64,000 bases of DNA, taken from assembly GCA_964505635.1 (NCBI GenBank), contig CAZDIP010000001.1, positions 40,174 to 104,173 of the forward strand. Direction: 5' to 3'. A program made the translations under genes and the position numbers. Source of the stretch: an uncultured Candidatus Saccharibacteria bacterium (lineage in GTDB: Bacteria; Patescibacteriota; Doudnabacteria; UBA920). A model generated the notes under the pieces. The model ran no database searches. It saw nothing but the letters and a program-made list of their open reading frames with translations, and had not been told where the DNA came from. This document shows positions 14,077 through 55,230 of this stretch, piece by piece. Position 1 is the stretch's first letter. The number at the start of each line of letters is the position of its first letter.

Positions 14077-15306
14077 ATGAAAGATAATCAGATAAAAATT
14101 AAAAATAAGGGAAGTGTGCTAATGGCGCTTTCCGGCGGCATAGATAGCGCGGTTTCAGCGTATCTACTAATTAAGCAGGGATATAAAGTACAAGCCGCGT
14201 TTATGAAGAACTGGAGCAGCCAGGAAGGCCTTTTGAAAAATGAATGCCCGTGGCTTTTAGACCGCAGGGAGGCTTTGCGCGTGGCTGCGTTTTTAAACAT
14301 CCCGCTTCATACATTGGATTTTGAAAAGCAGTACCAAAGTACGGTAATGAAATATTTTTTTAACGAATACAAAAAAGGCCGTACGCCAAACCCGGATGTC
14401 ATGTGCAATAAAGAAATCAAATTTAAGCTTTTATATAACTGGGCAATGAAAAACGGGTTTGATTATTTGGCTACGGGACACTACGCGAGAATTAGTAGAA
14501 AGAAGCAAGTAGTAAGTAGCAAGGGAAGGCAAAAAAAATCCATACTACATGCTACTAACTACACGCTACAGCGAAGCCGGGATGAATTCAAAGACCAAAC
14601 TTACTTCATCTATAACATAAAAACAGAGCAGCTGCCGCATGTGCTTTTTCCGATTGGGGGAAAGAAAAAAGAACAGGTGCGCAAAATGGCCAGGAAAATC
14701 GGTCTGCCTAACGCGGAACGCAAAGAAAGCATGGGTCTGTGCTTTGTTGGGAAAATTAGGCTGAAGGATTTTTTAGAGCAAAGGCTAAAAGAAAAAAAGG
14801 GGGAGATAATCTTTTTACCCCCTGCTTCGTCTTTGCGAGGAGTGCGGCCGACGAAGCAATCTTCCCCTAAAGAACAGATTGCTTCGGATGCACTCGCAAT
14901 GACGAAATCAATTATAGGACACCATTACGGCTTACATAACTACACCATTGGCCAGCGTCAGGGTATAAAAGTTGGCGGAAGCGGCCCGTATTATGTAGTA
15001 AGCAAGGATTTAAAAAGCAATACTTTGTTTGTAACTAATAATCCTGAAGACGAGCGTTTGTTTGTAAAAGAAGTACAGATCCATTCTGTAAACTGGATTG
15101 ATTCTAGCTACAAGCTAAAAGCTATAAGCTGTAAGCTTGTCGGAAGGTATAGGCACCAGGGGGAATTGGTTCCGCTAGGCATTTCAAAAATAGACAACAA
15201 GTATTATCGCGTAATTTTTAGAAATCCACAGAAAGCTGTTGCCTCGGGACAAAGTTTGGTATTATATAAAGGTAAGGAATGTGTCGGCGGAGGGGTAATT
15301 GCTTAG
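14077..15306 (+). CDS. mnmA: tRNA-specific 2-thiouridylase MnmA, carrying in-frame insertions
   Basis: PP-loop ALSGGIDSAVSAYLL and the conserved C-terminal domain. Extra segments ISRKKQVVSSKGRQKKSILHATNY and PPASSLRGVRPTKQSSPKEQIASDALAMTK coincide with palindromic DNA. Confidence 0.85.
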   Translation: MKDNQIKIKNKGSVLMALSGGIDSAVSAYLLIKQGYKVQAAFMKNWSSQEGLLKNECPWLLDRREALRVAAFLNIPLHTLDFEKQYQSTVMKYFFNEYKKGRTPNPDVMCNKEIKFKLLYNWAMKNGFDYLATGHYARISRKKQVVSSKGRQKKSILHATNYTLQRSRDEFKDQTYFIYNIKTEQLPHVLFPIGGKKKEQVRKMARKIGLPNAERKESMGLCFVGKIRLKDFLEQRLKEKKGEIIFLPPASSLRGVRPTKQSSPKEQIASDALAMTKSIIGHHYGLHNYTIGQRQGIKVGGSGPYYVVSKDLKSNTLFVTNNPEDERLFVKEVQIHSVNWIDSSYKLKAISCKLVGRYRHQGELVPLGISKIDNKYYRVIFRNPQKAVASGQSLVLYKGKECVGGGVIA

Positions 15307-31867: not shown

Positions 31868-32435
31868 GCTGAAAAAAATATTCAAATGGTTTTTTATATG
31901 TTTAGCCTCGCTGTTTTTGCTAAACGCGCTTACCATCGCGTTTTTTGCCAACTTCAGGCCGCAAATTAAGCAGGCCGACGCCATAATAGTTTTGGGCGCG
32001 GCCATAAACACGCCCGCGCTTTACAACCGCAGTCTTAAGGCTTTGGAGCTTTATGAGCAAAAAAAAGCGCCTTTACTGCTTTTGTCCGGAGGAAGAATAT
32101 CGCCCAAATTTATTTCCGAGGCTACCTACATGCAAAGAACCATGCAGTCCAAAGCCACCGCCCCTTTGAATTTGGTTTTAGAGGAAGAATCTTCCAATAC
32201 CTTTGAAAATTTTAAATTTACCAAGGAAAAGTCCGGAGAGGTAAAAAGCCTAATTGTGGTAAGCGATGAGTTCCATTTGGCCAGGGCGGTTTTGGTTGCT
32301 TTAAAAAGCGGTTTTTATCCGGTTTACTGGGACGCGCCAGAGCCTAATTACTACAAGAACAAAGAGTTAACGTTTTATTATATTCGTGAATTTTTTGCCA
32401 TGTTTTCCTATTTGCCGAAATTTGTTTGGAAATAG
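31854..32435 (+). CDS. YdcF/SanA/ElyC (DUF218) family protein
   Basis: N-terminal TM, then DAIIVLGAAIN...LLLLSGG and VVSDEFHLARA. Confidence 0.65.
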   Translation: MPKVRLKKIFKWFFICLASLFLLNALTIAFFANFRPQIKQADAIIVLGAAINTPALYNRSLKALELYEQKKAPLLLLSGGRISPKFISEATYMQRTMQSKATAPLNLVLEEESSNTFENFKFTKEKSGEVKSLIVVSDEFHLARAVLVALKSGFYPVYWDAPEPNYYKNKELTFYYIREFFAMFSYLPKFVWK

Positions 32436-32440
32436 GAAAA

Positions 32441-32482
32441 GCCGGCGGTTCGCTTACGTGATGCGTGCCGCCGGCTCTTAGT
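32441..32482. terminator. Bidirectional terminator hairpin (GCCGGCGG...CCGCCGGC) between convergent ydcF-like and xylA genes
   Basis: 8 bp GC stem flanked by A/T runs on both sides. Confidence 0.5.
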
Positions 32483-32520
32483 TAGTTTGCCTATTGTTTT
32501 GCCGCTATTCGGCGGCAGAA

Positions 32521-33756
32521 CTAAATCGAGTAGGTGCGACCTTTGTGTTGGTCGATCAGGATCTGGAAGAGTCGGTGGCCGATCAATTCATGCAGCGTCA
32601 GTAGTTCCTTGTGCGCTTCCGTGATGGCCGCAACATCGCGCGGGTCAGAAACTTCGCCGCCTGCTTTCAATGCATCGGTGGCTTCGCGGATGACGGGATC
32701 TTCCAGGACTTCTCCCGCCATCTCCCAAAGAGTAATGAAGCGATCGACGGCGGTGGGGAAGCTGACAGCAAATACTCCCCAGTTGCTGGTGGTGCGCGGC
32801 GGCTTGTAGTCAAGGTTGAACGGTCCGTTGTAGCCGTGGCTGCGAAGCAGGATAAGCACATTTAGCCAATCGAGAGGATTCACCAACCCGACGGCGATGT
32901 CGACGTCGTGTTTGAGGCGATAGCCGTCATTGATGTCGAAGTGCCACAGCTTACCTGCGCTGATAGCGCGGGCAAGGGCTGCGCGCGGGGCGCCGCCCCA
33001 CATCAGTTCGTGCAAATATTCCGGGTTGAGCCCCACCATTTCGGGATGCTTCAGCAGGCCACTGCCGATGAAAGCGAGCATGGAGTCGGAAGTGGGCAGC
33101 AGAATTTCGGCCTGGGGTTCAAACGGCTTGGCCTCCATGCAGTGCTTCAGTGTGGGTTGCCCCAATTTGCCGGCGAGTTCAATATCGGCTTCGCAGGCGG
33201 CATTGAGACCCTCGGCGTACCACTGCAATGCTTGGGTCTCTTCCACGGCTCCCTGGATCTGGTAGCCGAAGGAGCCGGGCCAGTAAACAGCGAATCGCGC
33301 GCCCAACTCGTGGCCGATTTTGACAGTATTCTTGAGGCGCTCGGCGGCGTATTGGCGAACGTAGGGGGATTCCGCGGCGGGTCCGGCGGAAAACACGGCG
33401 TGGTAGAAAGTTTCGGTGGTGACCATGGAGCAGGCGAGTCCGTTGGCCTTAAGTGTGTCGCCGATGCGTCCGACGATTTCATCCTGCTTGCTGGTGAAGA
33501 GATTGCCCGCTGGGATGACGTCCGTGTCATGGGTGGCCCAGTAGCCAATGCCGATTTCGGCATAGTGGCGGATGACTTCTTCGAAGGTGACGGGCTTGCG
33601 GGTGGGGGCGTGAAAGAGAGCTTGGCCTTCATAGGCGCCGGCCCATTGGGGCCCCGTGATGAAGTACTTGCGGCGCTGGTCCGGAGAGTAAGAACCGCCG
33701 CACGAACGCACTAGGCGTTCGACCAGCGGAAGCTGGTACTCTAATTTAATAGGCAT
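32521..33756 (-). CDS. xylA: Xylose isomerase. The gene is GC-rich and its composition is foreign to this genome.
   Basis: MPIKLEYQLP...FITGPQWAGAY...WATHDTDVIP...AVYWPGSFG...MEAKPFEPQAEILLPT...LNPEYLHELMWGG...WHFDINDG...LDYKPPRT aligns motif-for-motif with class I xylose isomerases. A perfect SD AGGAGGA precedes the ATG at 33756. The ORF track extends to 33852. Confidence 0.85.
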   Translation of the reverse strand: MPIKLEYQLPLVERLVRSCGGSYSPDQRRKYFITGPQWAGAYEGQALFHAPTRKPVTFEEVIRHYAEIGIGYWATHDTDVIPAGNLFTSKQDEIVGRIGDTLKANGLACSMVTTETFYHAVFSAGPAAESPYVRQYAAERLKNTVKIGHELGARFAVYWPGSFGYQIQGAVEETQALQWYAEGLNAACEADIELAGKLGQPTLKHCMEAKPFEPQAEILLPTSDSMLAFIGSGLLKHPEMVGLNPEYLHELMWGGAPRAALARAISAGKLWHFDINDGYRLKHDVDIAVGLVNPLDWLNVLILLRSHGYNGPFNLDYKPPRTTSNWGVFAVSFPTAVDRFITLWEMAGEVLEDPVIREATDALKAGGEVSDPRDVAAITEAHKELLTLHELIGHRLFQILIDQHKGRTYSI

Positions 33757-33959
33757 AGTTTTCCTCCTATGCTTTTTGTTTTCCGTCTGTCTTCGGAAAG
33801 TAAATAAATTGCCTGAAAATAGGGAGACAGACCCCTTTAAGCAAAAAATCAAGCCAATGCTTGACCTTTTATCTTAATGGTTTTTTCGTGCCTTTGTCAA
33901 TTATGGTTTTTAATTGTGAGTAAAAATGTAGTTGACGATTTTGTATTAAAGTGTTAAAC

Positions 33960-34268
33960 TATATTTAGTTTCTCACAGAAGCGGTTTCCGCCTCTGGAGG
34001 ATAATAAATATCCAATGACAGTTGGTCCCCGCCCCTCGTTGAGAGGCGGAGTTAATTCCCATTAAGGGAGCCCACCGAGGAATCTAATTAGCGTTTAGCG
34101 CAAAAGCGCCTAGCGTTTAGAATTTCACTCGGCTTGCCCGAGTTTTTTATTAGGATATTTAACTCAAAGGTCGATTTATAGAAACTTGTAACAAGTAATT
34201 AATAACTTATAACAGATTTCGGAGCAGGTTACTTGTTATAAATTATTAGTTACAAGTTAATTCAAATT
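33960..34268 (+). promoter_or_regulatory. Candidate rplJ (L10) leader: structured 5' UTR with a terminator/attenuator hairpin at 34128-34150 and AT-rich inverted repeats before the start codon
   Basis: GCGGTTTCCGCCTC...GAGAGGCGGAG helices, the repeat TTAGCGTTTAG twice, and CTCGG-CTTGC-CCGAG followed by TTTTTTATT. Confidence 0.4.
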
Positions 34269-34866: not shown

Positions 34867-35274
34867 ATGTCAGAAGAAAATAAAGTAGAAGTTCCGGAAA
34901 AGTTCAAAGCTTTGGTGGAACAAATTGAAAAATTATCGGTTTTGGAACTCTCCGAACTGGTAAAAGTTTTGGAAGGTAAGTTTGGCGTTTCAGCCGCTGC
35001 TCCTATGATGATGGGCGCCATGCCTGCCGGAGCTGGCGCAGCTGCCCCGGCTGCCGAAGAAAAGACCGAATTCACAGTTGAATTGGCCGATGCCGGCGCA
35101 AACAAAATAAACGTGATTAAAGTTGTTCGCGAAGTAACCGGTCTTGGACTTAAAGAAGCCAAAGATATTGTGGACGCCGCTCCAAAAGTAGTTAAAGAAA
35201 ATATGCCGAAAGCCGACGCTGAAGGCTTAAAAAAGAAATTGGAAGAAGCCGGCGCAAAAGTGAATTTAAAATAA
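34867..35274 (+). CDS. rplL: 50S ribosomal protein L7/L12
   Basis: Ala-rich hinge [24 protein letters not shown] and [24 protein letters not shown]. Confidence 0.9.
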
Positions 35275-35338
35275 TTTTTAGAATAAAATTATTTTAAATT
35301 CATCCTGAGCGAGCGCTAGCGAGCGAAGGATCTTTATA

Positions 35339-35370
35339 AAACCACCCGTCAAAACGGGTGGTTTTATGTT
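35339..35370. terminator. Terminator hairpin (AACCACCCG-TCAAAA-CGGGTGGTT followed by TTATGTT) between rplL and a convergent gene
   Basis: Seen directly in the sequence. Confidence 0.55.
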
Positions 35371-36251
35371 GTCTGCTTGTCAGGTCTTGTCAAAAAATAA
35401 ACCCCGCACAGCATGGGCGCGATTGCGGCTAGCTGCCAAAATTGAGGAAGCTCTTTTATTATTAAATAGGAAAAAAGCATGGTTAAAAAAGGGCGAATGC
35501 TTGCCAGGGCATTGGCTTTGGTCACTGAAATCCGTAAAATTGATTCCAGCCAGAAAATTTTGGAAACGCCCAAAATCACCACCCCGTTAAAAATTAAAAA
35601 TAAAAGCAGGCTTAAATTTACGGCAGGCAAATTAAAACCGTGAAAAATAAAAGCCAGCAAGAAAATAAACGGCAGGGACATGGCTGTTCGCATCAGCATA
35701 AGGCTTTCACCGCTGATTTGCCGGCGGATTTTGCGCTGTAAAAAATTGCCCATGGGCGGGAGCGCGGTACAGAGCAAGATGAGCAAGTCGCCTTTATTAA
35801 AATCCAATTTTTGCATCTGCGGGTAAAAAATTAACAAAGTGCTCAGCAGCATCAATCCGGCTCCAAACAGATGCGCTTTAGTCAGGGACTCTTTTTTCCA
35901 GACATTGAAAAATAGGAAACTGAAAAAAAGTTCCATTTGCAGAATAATACCCGAGTTGTTGGCCGAAGTATAATTAAGCCCCCAAAAGTAAAGCCCATAG
36001 TAACCAACGCCAATTAATAACGCAACACCCAGCGCGTCTTTTATGATTTGGCGATTTTTCAGCTCGCCGAATTTATTTTTTAAAAATACCCAGAAAGCGA
36101 AAAATAGGGCGCTAAGCGCCAGGCTGTAAGCGAGGGAAAACAGGGGTTTTAAAATGGAAAATGAAAGCAGGGTTACAATGGGTAAAAGGCTGTTTATAAG
36201 AGATTCTGCCAAAATGGCCAGTTCGCCTTTGCGGGTTTCGGTTAAGTTCAT
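35364..36251 (-). CDS. DMT-superfamily (EamA-like) membrane transporter
   Basis: 295 aa with about 10 TM helices in two halves. Confidence 0.45.
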   Translation of the reverse strand: MNLTETRKGELAILAESLINSLLPIVTLLSFSILKPLFSLAYSLALSALFFAFWVFLKNKFGELKNRQIIKDALGVALLIGVGYYGLYFWGLNYTSANNSGIILQMELFFSFLFFNVWKKESLTKAHLFGAGLMLLSTLLIFYPQMQKLDFNKGDLLILLCTALPPMGNFLQRKIRRQISGESLMLMRTAMSLPFIFLLAFIFHGFNLPAVNLSLLLFLIFNGVVILGVSKIFWLESILRISVTKANALASIRPFLTMLFSYLIIKELPQFWQLAAIAPMLCGVYFLTRPDKQTT

Positions 36252-44872: not shown

Positions 44873-44948
44873 GGTAGCGCTACCCCGCACAACTTTCCGC
44901 CAGTTGGCGGAAAGTTGTGCGGGGCGCAGCGGGGAATTCCCCGAACCC
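44873..44948 (-). other. Partial duplicate of the tRNA-Glu 3' end interrupted by a perfect 19 bp-stem palindrome (candidate att remnant)
   Basis: Plus-strand TGGTAGCGCTAC + [CCCCGCACAACTTTCCGCC-AGTT-GGCGGAAAGTTGTGCGGGG] + GGGGAATTCCCCGAACCC, compared with the tRNA-Glu plus-strand TGGTAGCGCTACGGGGAATCGAACCCCGA at 46774. Confidence 0.4.
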
Positions 44949-44989: not shown

Positions 44990-45022
44990 ATGGTAGACCA
45001 AGTCGAGACAGGTGGAAAACTT
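44990..45022. repeat. Left copy of a perfect 33 bp inverted repeat (ATGGTAGACCAAGTCGAGACAGGTGGAAAACTT)
   Basis: Exact reverse complement of 48617-48649. Verified base by base over 29 nt, with about 2 nt more on each side. Confidence 0.8.
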
Positions 45023-45089
45023 TTCTCGCATTGGTAAAAGAGATTTATAATTTGTTTGTTACCAAGCCTATTGTCCCTAATGCTACTTT

Positions 45090-47298: not shown

Positions 47299-48609
47299 AT
47301 GGAAAATTTATTGAGCCGGCTTGGCTCTTTTATTTTGCTTGAGAAACAGGCAAAAAACGTTAATAAGCAAATTAAACGGAATGCGAAAAAGAATAAAATC
47401 GCCAATCCGCGCTTTTTTAACTTGGAAGAACTTAAGACATTACCAGAAAAAATATTAAATAAAAGTTTTACATTTGATTTACTCCGTGCCAAGACTATAC
47501 CAAAGCCTGGCAAAACCAAACGAAGACCGCTCTCAATACCAACGCCGAGAGACAGGGTCGTTTATGGTGTATTAAACAGACTGCTAAAACCTGCTCTTAT
47601 TGGGTATTTAAATCAAGCGCCTTCTTATGGAATATTAAAAAAACGCGGCGTGCATGGAGCGTATACTGAGATAAAAAAGCATTTAGCAGATGGTTGTCAT
47701 TATGTTCTAAAAGTTGATATCCAAGATTTTTTTAATAAAATTGACAAGGGAATTTTATCATTTATTTTATTTCCAAGAATTGCCAATACCGCTGACTCCT
47801 CAATTAACCATTTAATTAGGGACTGCTTAAAATTTGAATATAAGTCTTTACCGGAAGAGGAGGAGTTAAGAAAACTTTTTCCTACAAAATATTATGGCAT
47901 CGCACAAGGCAACGCTTTATCTCCACTATTTGCTGATGTCTACCTAAAGCTATTTGACTCGGAACTTAAACGTTCCGGTTTTAAAGTTGTTAGGTATGTT
48001 GATGATTTAATTGTTTTTACAAAAACAAAAAAGGAACTTTATCCAGCTTACATAAAAATTAAAAACTGTCTTAAGCCTCTAAAGCTAACTATAGATAAAT
48101 ACAATACGGGTAAATGTATAGCAACTGATATTACTCGGCATGTTGAATTTTTAGGCGTAGACATTGGACCGGGACAGATTTTAACAATACAGGGAAATAG
48201 GGTGCAAGCACTTAGGAGTAAGCTCTCGGCTTTATTAGATAGATTCTATAACAAGCGCTTTGTTCATATTTCCTATAAAGAAAAAATGGACGGTATTAAT
48301 GGACTGATTGAAGGTTGGGCTGGCGCGTATAGTATGTGTGACCGTGCTTATTTAGCAGATTTGTATGAGAAGCTAAATAAAATGATAAATAGTAATATTG
48401 ACAGCCTTTTAAATCGCGGGCTTATTGTCCAAAAAGAGCACGATTATCTATTTAATAATGTAAGACGTTTCCATTTACCTACTGGCAAAAAACGAAAGAT
48501 TACGAGGAAGAAAAAATCTCGCTATAGTTACGGAGTCAAGCCATCAAAAGGCCAATTGAAGATTTGGAGTGGCGGTATTTATAATTTAAGAGTAAATGTC
48601 CTTTACTAG
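47299..48609 (+). CDS. Reverse transcriptase (retron/group-II-like RT domain with a thumb; no endonuclease domain)
   Basis: RT motifs: RRPLSIPTPRDRVVYGVL (1/2), SYGILKKRGVHGAY (2a), YVLKVDIQDFFNKI (A), GIAQGNALSPLFADVYL (B'), RYVDDLIVF (C) and EFLGVDI (7), then a GLIEGWAGAYS thumb motif. 436 aa. Confidence 0.85.
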   Translation: MENLLSRLGSFILLEKQAKNVNKQIKRNAKKNKIANPRFFNLEELKTLPEKILNKSFTFDLLRAKTIPKPGKTKRRPLSIPTPRDRVVYGVLNRLLKPALIGYLNQAPSYGILKKRGVHGAYTEIKKHLADGCHYVLKVDIQDFFNKIDKGILSFILFPRIANTADSSINHLIRDCLKFEYKSLPEEEELRKLFPTKYYGIAQGNALSPLFADVYLKLFDSELKRSGFKVVRYVDDLIVFTKTKKELYPAYIKIKNCLKPLKLTIDKYNTGKCIATDITRHVEFLGVDIGPGQILTIQGNRVQALRSKLSALLDRFYNKRFVHISYKEKMDGINGLIEGWAGAYSMCDRAYLADLYEKLNKMINSNIDSLLNRGLIVQKEHDYLFNNVRRFHLPTGKKRKITRKKKSRYSYGVKPSKGQLKIWSGGIYNLRVNVLY

Positions 48610-48616
48610 AGCCAAA

Positions 48617-48649
48617 TAAGTTTTCCACCTGTCTCGACTTGGTCTACCA
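48617..48649. repeat. Right copy of the perfect 33 bp inverted repeat, 8 nt after the RT stop and before the RT terminator
   Basis: AAGTTTTCCACCTGTCTCGACTTGGTCTACCAT is the rc of 44990-45022. Confidence 0.8.
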
Positions 48650-48669
48650 TCATTTAGATAATCCCTTCT

Positions 48670-54618: not shown

Positions 54619-55230
54619 TTACTTTTTTGCTTTACTAAAAGCCCCTTTAATCGGTTTTACCAACTTTTCAAAATCTTTAACAGCCAATTCCACGCTGTGG
54701 GTATAGGTTCCGGCGGAGGCTATTATTTTCTTCGCCTTGCTCATTCCTTTGTCCATCAGCGTCTGTAAATTGTAATGAATCCCGAATGGGTGAAGCAGGC
54801 CGACTTTGGTTTTTAGGTGTTTAGTTATGTCTTTTTCACTGGCCATGCTGACTTTTTTTGCTTTTAAAGCTTTTTTAATACCGTTGAAATCAACGTATTT
54901 GGCAGCCGGCAGGACAATTAGCGCAAAATAGTTATTTTTCGTCATTGCGAGTGCAGCCGAAGCAATCTTTTTCCGCGGTGAGATTGTTTTGTCGGATGCG
55001 CTCCTCGCAATGACAGCAGACGGGGAACCCTCCACTTTGACTAATACCACTTTCGCGATTTCGGAAAGTTTTTTCTTGGTTGTCGCGCCTACGTCATGCG
55101 CTGTAAAAACCACTTTATGCTCCAAGACTTTGTATTTAACCTTAGCCTGGTCTAACAATTTGGTTATCTGGTTTGAAAGGTGTTTTATTTGCTTTTTTGT
55201 TTTGTTATTAAATTTATGTTTCTTTTTCAT
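54619..55230 (-). CDS. YbaK/ProX-type aminoacyl-tRNA deacylase domain protein with an in-frame palindromic insertion
   Basis: KVLEH..VFTA.D..., IAKVVLVK, ALIVLPAAKYVDFNGIKK and GLLHPFG. The insertion is SAVIARSASDKTISPRKKIASAALAMTK. Confidence 0.6.
   Translation of the reverse strand: MKKKHKFNNKTKKQIKHLSNQITKLLDQAKVKYKVLEHKVVFTAHDVGATTKKKLSEIAKVVLVKVEGSPSAVIARSASDKTISPRKKIASAALAMTKNNYFALIVLPAAKYVDFNGIKKALKAKKVSMASEKDITKHLKTKVGLLHPFGIHYNLQTLMDKGMSKAKKIIASAGTYTHSVELAVKDFEKLVKPIKGAFSKAKK

Follow-up and report, generated by a model that had tools for sequence, protein, structure and literature searches.

Repetitive extragenic palindromes (REPs) of the CGTC class are recognized by a CGTC tag, often TGTC, by a stem that opens with A-T and T-A pairs and by a CCA tail, and they mostly occur as inverted dimers (PMC3733652). 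They show an alphaproteobacterial bias with members in deep phyla and have no dedicated transposase, and their intragenic dimers code for stretches of 20-30 residues, frequently within tRNA enzymes and enzymes of DNA repair (PMC3733652). The published unit has a stem of 8-9 bp and a loop of 4-5 nt, and bulged variants may have escaped the search (PMC3733652). Two of the Rickettsia palindromic elements (RPEs) of R. conorii belong to this class, RPE-6 as CGTC-1 and RPE-4 as CGTC-4, as does dRS3 of Neisseria as CGTC-1 (PMC3733652). RPE-4, -6 and -7 share the motif ATGAC, the reverse complement of the GTCAT head, and Rickettsia orthologues bear different groups of these three elements, or none, at one locus (PMC3767692). 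Here we describe a 64-kb stretch of DNA (64,000 nt, the whole of which we call the window) from a bacterium of the Candidate Phyla Radiation (CPR), in which two palindromes of this kind lie inside mnmA and inside the gene of a YbaK-like editing protein. Our reading, to which we give a probability of roughly 85%, is that each copy is a non-autonomous, CGTC-tagged inverted REP dimer of a low-copy family, carried as a translated passenger in a tolerant loop.

The phenomenon itself, selfish palindromes within genes, is known from Rickettsia and the host lineage is new. A literature search on the CPR with palindromic or REP terms returned no mention of REP elements in CPR, so the element is apparently unreported in these bacteria, to which the protein-coding palindromes known from the RPEs are now extended. 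The closest relatives of both host proteins are metagenomic, and those that carry a name come from Candidatus Doudnabacteria or Patescibacteria.

Two paired palindromes inside housekeeping genes

An earlier note on this DNA had described a palindromic repeat lying in-frame in mnmA and in a ybaK-like gene, and both copies are indeed found at those places, inside intact open reading frames (ORFs). Copy A spans 77 nt from tag to tag (14828-14904, + strand) within mnmA (14077-15306, +), which is intact and encodes tRNA 2-thiouridine(34) synthase; the protein reaches 384.6 bits with the NCBIfam equivalog, whose cutoff is 284, and has the HUP, PRC-barrel and C-terminal barrel domains of Pfam. Copy B spans 76 nt (54940-55015, - strand) within the intact ORF of a YbaK/ProX-like aminoacyl-tRNA editing domain protein (54619-55230, -), whose match to Pfam tRNA_edit, at 70.5 bits, is above the cutoff of 25.5 and which falls under the YbaK equivalog cutoff. 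Both copies are inverted dimers with their tags facing outward and a spacer of 10-11 nt, and copy B, read in the orientation of its gene, has the same order as copy A: a long (L) arm, the spacer and a short (S) arm.

In copy A, the L unit (arm A1, 14828-14863, +; 39.1 bits in the covariance model described below) opens with the tag CGTC (14828-14831), followed by one strand of the outer stem P1, TTTGC (14832-14836, with an A>T change), which pairs with GCAAT at 14856-14860; its interior reads GAG-GAG...GAC-GAA and its tail CTT. An 11-nt spacer forming the loop (14864-14874) leads to the S unit (arm A2, 14875-14904, -; 35.3 bits), CGTC-ATTGC-GAG-TGCATCC-GAA-GCAAT-CTG. In copy B, the L unit (arm B1, 54980-55015, -; 35.1 bits) reads TGTC-ATTGC-GAG-GAGCGCATCCGAC-AAA-ACAAT-CTC, its variants being the tag TGTC (55012-55015, - strand) and a G>A change in the 3' half of P1, and the S unit (arm B2, 54940-54969, +; 38.2 bits) reads CGTC-ATTGC-GAG-TGCAGCC-GAA-GCAAT-CTT. 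The tag CGTC is accordingly found at 14828-14831 (+), 14901-14904 (-) and 54940-54943, and the stem starts with ATTGC in three arms and, one substitution away, with TTTGC in A1. The 3' tails CTT, CTG, CTT and CTC belong to the minority class of the wider family.

Repeat detection paired 14873-14907 with 54937-54971 over 35 nt (94% complementary) and 14829-14862 with 54981-55014 over 34 nt (82% complementary). In gene orientation the two copies are identical at 66/83 positions, and their homology reaches about 11 nt upstream (CCCC..TGCT) and 3-4 nt downstream (GAAA) of the palindrome. The upstream extension in copy A, CCCCCTGCTT (14818-14827, +), is common to copy B and resembles the start of an unrelated palindrome, here termed PPL, that occupies the same mnmA site in other orthologues. 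An identity of 32/33 between the copies had been claimed from a quoted 27-mer; that 27-mer matches at 26/27 positions, and the longest ungapped match is 33/35.

Allowing at most one mismatch, we found the head GTCATTGCGAG four times in the window, once in each arm, where 0.35 matches were expected; in 100 shuffles the count never rose to four. A covariance model of the unit likewise found only the four arms in the window, at 35-39 bits (E about 1e-7 to 1e-6), with the next match at 9.7 bits, although these scores arise partly by construction because the 82 sequences used to train the model included the four arms. The long hairpins fold at -37.6 kcal/mol (z = -5.2) for copy A and -29.6 kcal/mol (z = -3.8) for copy B.

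The unit across genomes

We scanned one genome per GTDB species, 596 Gb in all, for the exact pattern GTCATTGCGAG-N35-65-CTCGCAATGAC, for which we estimate about one match by chance (22 fixed bases, 31 spacings, 596 Gb). The pattern, which by design returns only dimers, was found at no fewer than 120 loci (that is, at least 120) in genome contigs of many phyla and in at least 120 IMG/VR viral contigs, some of which hold 2-3 copies. The family proposed in the earlier note has hundreds of members outside the window, and it is very sparse in this lineage. Among the matches listed, the hosts include Alphaproteobacteria (many Bradyrhizobium, along with Sphingomonas, Micavibrio, Rickettsiales and the Rickettsiaceae genus Tisiphia), Gamma- and Deltaproteobacteria, Bacteroidota (Pedobacter, Mucilaginibacter, Flavobacterium), Chloroflexi, Planctomycetes, Cyanobacteria (Microcoleus), Zixibacteria and, within the CPR, Berkelbacteria and Patescibacteria; several loci of other phyla hold 2-3 copies inside 8-14 kb. 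A nearly invariant unit of about 30 nt is thus common to Proteobacteria, Bacteroidota, Chloroflexi, Planctomycetes, Cyanobacteria, CPR and many viral contigs. A full-text literature search with 11-mers returned unrelated primer sequences only.

The four window arms align with 78 units of other genomes (82 in total) to give the consensus (C/T)GTC, ATTGC, GA, an inner hairpin running from G to C, G(A/T/C)(A/G), GCAAT and C(C/T)N. The unit folds into the 5-bp outer stem P1, an internal loop (GA against GAA, GTG or GCG) and a variable inner stem P2, and the first pairs beside the tag, A-T and T-A, are invariant columns in the 82 aligned units. Among the genome-contig matches listed, the 5' tag is CGTC in 166/225 arms (74%) and TGTC in 48/225 (21%), the base at position -1 is mostly C (73%) and otherwise usually T (22%), GAA precedes GCAAT in 176 of the 225 arms, and the 3' tail is CCA in 130/225 (58%), with CTN making up most of the rest; the tails next in frequency are CTC, CCC and CTT. 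The common short version has the inner hairpin GCGNAGC, the long version GA-GCGAAGC-GAC adds two G.A/A.G mismatches, and less frequent versions are built on GC-rich inner stems of a quite different kind, for example GGCCCC-AAA-GGGGCC. The inner hairpin is GCGNAGC or GCGNNAGC, a motif described as a DNA mini-hairpin of extraordinary stability (PMC13037366), in 66% of the genome-contig units and 58% of the viral-contig units among those listed.

Compensatory change is marked in P2: 42 cells changed on both sides, compared to 23 +/- 3.5 after shuffling, and 0/500 shuffles reached the observed value, a result that is not a probability, as the column-shuffle control leaves kinship among the sequences in. 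One P2 pair occurs as GC 27 times, CG 9 times, AU 8 times and UA 3 times. Such covariation of the inner stem would also suit a hairpin kept as a cis-acting mRNA structure, serving transcript stability, translation pausing at a domain boundary or processing. Consistent with this, both strands of the element fold well, conservation is higher in the S arm than in the codons around it, and Di Nocera et al. argued that many REPs function as transcribed RNA (PMC3733652). We nevertheless regard a role as RNA as unlikely. Rfam has no family for the element at gathering or permissive E-values (window copy, canonical copy and 17 loci), and its permissive matches are generic hairpin noise from miRNA models; moreover, one site can hold the element either way round, it occurs within coding sequence and outside it, in unrelated genes and phyla, and most orthologues work without the insert. 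The presence of GCGNAGC or its variant in 66% of units points instead to action as single-stranded DNA. We suggest, by analogy with the REP/RAYT paradigm (RAYT, REP-associated tyrosine transposase), that the unit would be recognized in that form, as an unpaired tetranucleotide next to a hairpin suits HUH enzymes specific for single-stranded DNA.

Insertion sites and reading frames

Relative to orthologues, both window segments are insertions. In MnmA, the inserted coding segment (14815-14910, +; residues 247-278, FLPPASSLRGVRPTKQSSPKEQIASDALAMTKS) replaces a 4-5-residue hairpin tip of the DQDGK type: E. coli MnmA (2DER) aligns with residues 13-246 and 279-408 of the query, and the 32 query residues in between stand against four (236-239). 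In the YbaK-like protein, the segment at residues about 65-100 (VEGSPSAVIARSASDKTISPRKKIASAALAMTKNNY) stands where empty orthologues have ADKD. Among the 120 best MnmA homologues the tip measures 4-6 residues, typically DQDGK, in 68/120 and 14-63 residues in 52/120, while among 120 YbaK-like homologues it is the four-residue ADKD in 75/120 and longer in 45/120. The statement that orthologues lack these segments therefore holds for E. coli MnmA, and so for an unrelated bacterium, and for the 68 and 75 short forms, whereas the 52 and 45 others, many close Doudnabacteria orthologues with the same or a related insert among them, carry one of these or some other insert. Such palindromes account for a substantial share of the differences in length between CPR orthologues (347-472 residues in MnmA), and these segments should not be annotated as functional domains.

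The AlphaFold model of MnmA (mean pLDDT, predicted local distance difference test, 77) places the insert between strands E242-246 and E278-283, at a pLDDT of about 47-64, with a predicted helix at residues 264-274; in the YbaK-like protein, the alignment places it between two strands, VVLVK and F.LIVLP. The insert is thus predicted to replace a beta-hairpin tip in MnmA, by model and alignment, and in the YbaK-like protein as judged from its alignment, the model there being too poor; to that extent the loops that had been anticipated are where the insertions map. The empty ybaK site reads GTTAAG-GCCGATAAAGAT-TTTGTG, and filled ybaK sites have 17-20 extra nt followed by the palindrome, upstream of the leftover empty-site loop. 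At the filled mnmA site the 15-nt loop GACCAAGATGGGCAA is wholly replaced. Compared to empty orthologues the net addition is +84 nt in mnmA and +96 nt in ybaK, the shared upstream extension included, and the dimers themselves, at 77 and 76 nt, are not multiples of three. We propose that REP dimer DNA entered the hairpin tips of MnmA and of the YbaK-like editing protein, and that the insert could persist because the length added overall is divisible by three, no stop interrupts the frame used and the roughly 30 extra residues project from a tolerant loop. The element would then be transcribed and translated as a passenger, and the insert would be neutral.

Read directly, the 3' arm CTCGCAATGAC has two open frames (LAMT, ARND) and a third closed by TGA, and none of the three frames of the 5' arm is closed (VIA, HCE, SLR); the readings among orthologues are LAMT or ARND, and SLRG or VIAR. 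The two window copies had been described as sharing orientation and reading frame relative to their genes. Their orientation is the same, and so is the frame of the 3' arm (IAS[D/A]ALAMTK), but the 5' arms are one frame apart (SSLRGVRPTKQS and VIARSASDKTIS) because the spacers differ by 1 nt. At the DNA level, S arm A2 shares an identical 27-nt core (GATTGC...AATGAC) and an ungapped run of 29 nt with the mnmA insert of a related contig (L123; we cite contigs of other genomes by L numbers), in which the flanking mnmA DNA is 63% identical. S arm B2 is identical in L307 and recurs in opposite orientation in the mnmA of L121. Since the tip holds different palindromes in different orthologues, lying either way round and read in more than one frame, what is conserved is the nucleotide sequence with its single-strand hairpin, and not the peptide.

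These observations bear on the possibility that the protein has gained, in the insert, a functional extension peculiar to this lineage, such as a loop binding tRNA or a partner, with the palindrome incidental. Both hosts handle tRNA, the insert is kept in frame and a helix is predicted at 264-274, all of which such an extension would explain. It is nonetheless very improbable, as the same DNA is read in different frames among orthologues and in the two window copies, across phyla the same element turns up between genes and within genes that are unrelated, model confidence is low across the insert, and unrelated palindromes occupy the same tip. NCBIfam detected no RPE or other domain in the insert peptides or in three-frame translations of a composed canonical element. 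As to whether copies are always in frame, a question raised in the earlier note, the lengths of 124 dimers of other genomes spread 50/37/37 across the residues modulo 3. Lying in frame is a condition of survival in an essential gene and not a property of the element. Further in-frame copies were found in metagenome-assembled genomes (MAGs) of low G+C content, in L033 (4466-4543, VIARPRSGAAISKNSEIASEGAPRNDD), in L038 (2835-2921, VIASKAKQSHSTGSANNGIATSPLAPRNDN) and in a Patescibacteria ORF of L046 (7300-7386); from their sequences we take these ORFs to be GMP synthase-like, UvrA-like and transglycosylase-like, respectively.

The mnmA tip carries a range of palindromes. CGTC sub-families can be told by their heads, ATTGCGAG, ATCCCGAG, ATCCTGAG and ATTCCCGC. 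The tip has an L-S dimer in the window and in L123, an S-L dimer in L121, an ATCCCGG-family dimer in L124 and short remnants in L131. In L130 (2633-2713) it has an in-frame hybrid dimer made of a ATCCCGAG-family arm and a ATTGCGAG-family arm, and therefore units of different CGTC sub-families can pair or recombine. The unrelated, GC-rich PPL palindrome occupies the tip in L122 (2885-3031), L140 (8815-9000) and L147 (10664-10810); its sequence is ACCTCCCCTAACCCCTCCTT-CTAA-AGGAGGGG ... CTCCCCTT-ACG-AAGGGGAGG..., and it encodes PPLTPPSKGG...PPLTKGRLGG. A second MnmA beta-hairpin (window 14490-14570, residues about 140-165) is hypervariable in orthologues and 16 residues longer than in E. coli, with a pLDDT below 50 at residues 145-158. 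Orthologues carry CGTC-type dimers there as well (GTCATTCCGAG...CTCAGGATGAC, with peptides such as RRHSERVHPSEESQ): L121 (1072-1160), L122 (2580-2668), L124 (4363-4457), L154 (509-604) and L175 (2032-2126). In ybaK the ATTGCGAG insert is common to the closest relatives, and farther orthologues have a ATCCTGAG-family peptide (VILSERSESKD) or other short inserts. We propose that these loops act as hot spots, at which CGTC units and other palindromes would have come in, been swapped or turned round and been deleted in part, many times over.

The same variety could descend from one ancient insertion per site in the Doudnabacteria ancestor, diversified in place by divergence, gene conversion from other copies in the genome and deletion, an alternative that we hold to be possible, if the less probable one. 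The ybaK insert, being common to the closest relatives, looks vertically inherited. All insert-bearing MnmA orthologues share a hydrophobic residue and 2-4 further residues (L/F-L/T/S-S/P) before the palindrome, and the window residues FLPP, which precede the REP and resemble the start of the PPL element (FLPPLTPP in L140), look like a remnant of it. The nearest relatives of the window MnmA include empty forms with a 4-residue GEKG tip, which could be a deletion scar, and for RPE-4/-6/-7 Matsutani et al. likewise did not choose between the two options (PMC3767692). On the other hand, the S/L order of L121 is opposite to that of the window and recombination between inverted arms cannot yield it, the dimer of L130 is put together from two CGTC families, genomes that match in only 63-70% of the flanking gene DNA have identical S arms, and filled and empty MnmA states interleave on a crude neighbour-joining tree. 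From these comparisons, the inverted order and the hybrid dimer in particular favour repeated events over one ancient, later replaced insertion.

If the events were repeated, the dimers might even be targeted to given beta-hairpin-coding tips of mnmA and ybaK, again and again, in both orientations and from several sub-families, by a transposase-independent, replication-linked mechanism using the GCGNAGC mini-hairpin. Template switching, or primase- or fork-associated insertion at existing hairpins, would be example routes. We consider targeting of this kind doubtful; were it true, the long-missing machinery that mobilizes CGTC REPs and RPEs would be simplest to identify in CPR genomes, which are of about 1 Mb and have only a few copies. 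The recurrent use of two MnmA hairpin tips and the GCGNAGC core offer, in any case, handles on how CGTC REPs spread without a transposase.

Surroundings and comparison with known systems

A sister-family unit was found singly in the window. It belongs to the ATCCTGAG family (35299-35334, +; TTC-ATCCT-GA-GCGAGCGCTAGCGAGC-GAA-GGAT-CT) and is intergenic, between the convergent ORFs 34867-35274 (+) and 35364-36251 (-), where it precedes a terminator-like hairpin at about 35340-35366, the classical position of an extragenic REP. A mismatch search with four sister heads placed nearly all paired matches inside mnmA, and in about 555 kb of CPR contigs units occurred only at the mnmA site and at three CPR loci picked by the pattern scan. 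The family is thus low-copy here, in a small, gene-dense genome, and its surviving copies are mostly intragenic, which fits the very short intergenic regions, as in Rickettsia.

The neighbours of both copies are housekeeping genes, namely a possibly DsbA-like gene, one of no assigned function, ScpA and aspartyl-tRNA synthetase (AspRS), and the order AspRS - YbaK-like - ScpA is kept in L305 and L307. In L305 (2043-2405) and L306 (1967-2329), a gene of the bAvd/23S_rRNA_IVP family, an accessory type of diversity-generating retroelements (DGRs), lies between the YbaK-like gene and scpA; both contigs have an empty ybaK site, and the window has no such gene at that position.

Elsewhere in the window, whose G+C content is about 39%, a 436-residue reverse transcriptase ORF (47299-48609, +) matches Pfam RVT_1 (3.8e-24) and the RT and UG17-like models of PADLOC, and its best NCBIfam match, group II intron RT/maturase, scores 161.6 bits, under the cutoff of 300. 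The ORF is bracketed by a 58-nt inverted repeat (44990-45047 and 48593-48650, 3.5 kb apart; 86% identical, with the first 33 nt identical), whose mismatches are not adenine-specific, so that it is not an obvious DGR template and variable repeat (TR/VR) pair, and Rfam detected no group II intron RNA in the region. One arm of this repeat adjoins a GC-rich hairpin that has a perfect stem of 18 bp and a loop of 4 nt (44884-44923, CCCCGCACAACTTTCCGCC-AGTT-GGCGGAAAGTTGTGCGGGG), which has the lowest folding energy of the window (-56 kcal/mol in a 90-nt frame). A G+C-rich island at about 32000-34000 (0.52 per 2-kb window and up to 0.66 per 90 nt, versus about 0.39 overall) holds a 443-residue ORF with a xylose-isomerase-like TIM barrel (32521-33852, -) and may have been horizontally acquired.

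Other known palindromes were also considered. Integron attC sites have the cores RYYYAAC...GTTRRRY, and the element could be taken for one, as it is an imperfect palindrome of attC-like length; its ends, (C/T)GTCAT...ATGAC(G/A) (GTCATTG...CAATGAC), lack these cores and the copies form no array. Its arms do act as inverted repeats, as in a MITE (a miniature transposable element with inverted repeats), but no direct target-site duplication flanks either window copy or any of the 124 dimers inspected, and we rejected a classical MITE. A group II intron fragment, which a reverse transcriptase gene elsewhere in the window might call to mind, and a CRISPR repeat were rejected as well, in view of the missing array and of the lack of any Rfam intron or CRISPR match. 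Finally, the same inserts are present in independent NCBI, JGI, ENA and Logan assemblies, which speaks against an assembly artefact. That the copies are any of these is scarcely credible.

Several points weigh against the view that the copies are CGTC REP dimers of a mobile family. In place of GCGNAGC, the window arms have degenerate inner hairpins, GTGCATCC and GTGCAGCC. The unit combines an outer stem of 5 bp with an internal loop and an inner stem that varies, in contrast to the contiguous 8-9 bp and 4-5 nt of the published unit; in the S type the paired region totals 22 nt, close to 9+4+9, with pairs that are not contiguous. By the published description, we place the element in the CGTC class as a whole, of which four families are published. 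The covariance model, run with filters off, found no further CGTC REP copies of the ATTGCGAG family, decayed ones included, in the 64-kb window, and it found no ATTGCGAG-family units outside mnmA in about 450 kb of related contigs. No RAYT/Y1 transposase was found among the ORFs scanned (about 14 of roughly 60 in the window), and the target-site duplication is missing as described above. The AlphaFold model of the YbaK-like protein is unreliable (pLDDT 52.6) and does not place the insert with confidence. Past mobility is something we infer, and nothing in the data shows current or recent mobility.

The RPEs are reportedly due to Ogata et al. 2002, and REPINs and RAYTs to Nunvar 2010, Bertels & Rainey 2011 and Ton-Hoang 2012. 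In a REPIN, two inverted REP units form a larger hairpin that is likely the replicative unit. The window copies resemble REPINs and GTAG REPs in being imperfect hairpins with a conserved unpaired tetranucleotide, as expected of a single-stranded substrate of an HUH enzyme, but their tag is CGTC/TGTC and not GTAG, and GTAG REPs are overwhelmingly extragenic and high-copy. To our knowledge, neither a RAYT nor any other mobilizing enzyme is known for CGTC REPs. The dRS3 unit, CGTC-ATTCCCGC-N4-GCGGGAAT-CCA, has the same tag, AT stem start and end and CCA tail, and differs in its stem sequence and in forming intergenic arrays. The mini-hairpin d(GCGNAGC)/d(GCGNNAGC) is the exact inner hairpin of the 66% and 58% of listed units given above, yet it is a motif of physical chemistry and not a genetic element, and the window arms have it in degenerate form; a literature search found no paper tying it to REPs.

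The closest comparisons are with the RPEs and the CGTC REPs. Like RPE-4/-6/-7, the window copies are inserted in-frame in housekeeping ORFs at exposed sites, without an orthologous segment outside the lineage, they carry the ATGAC/GTCAT motif, and their orthologues bear different element groups or none; the exact pattern also occurs in Rickettsiales MAGs and in Tisiphia (L022, L073). They differ in belonging to another phylum, and Rickettsia genomes have many more copies. With CGTC REPs in general they share the CGTC/TGTC tag, the A-T/T-A stem start, the inverted dimers, a spread over many phyla that includes Bradyrhizobium, Sphingomonas, Micavibrio, Cyanobacteria and Planctomycetes, and intragenic dimers of 20-30 residues, often in enzymes handling tRNA or DNA; a short tail (CCA or CTN) and, as judged from the ORFs scanned, the absence of an associated transposase may be shared as well. 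The host sets them apart, as CPR/Patescibacteria lay outside the 2013 sample, as do the very low copy number and the almost exclusively intragenic position. Taken together, because the element bears the marks of a CGTC REP and the ATGAC motif, the RPE-like reading first proposed for it is supported, and the resemblance to RPEs is probably one of homology and not of analogy alone, the link being the assignment of RPEs to the CGTC class (PMC3733652) and the shared ATGAC motif (PMC3767692).

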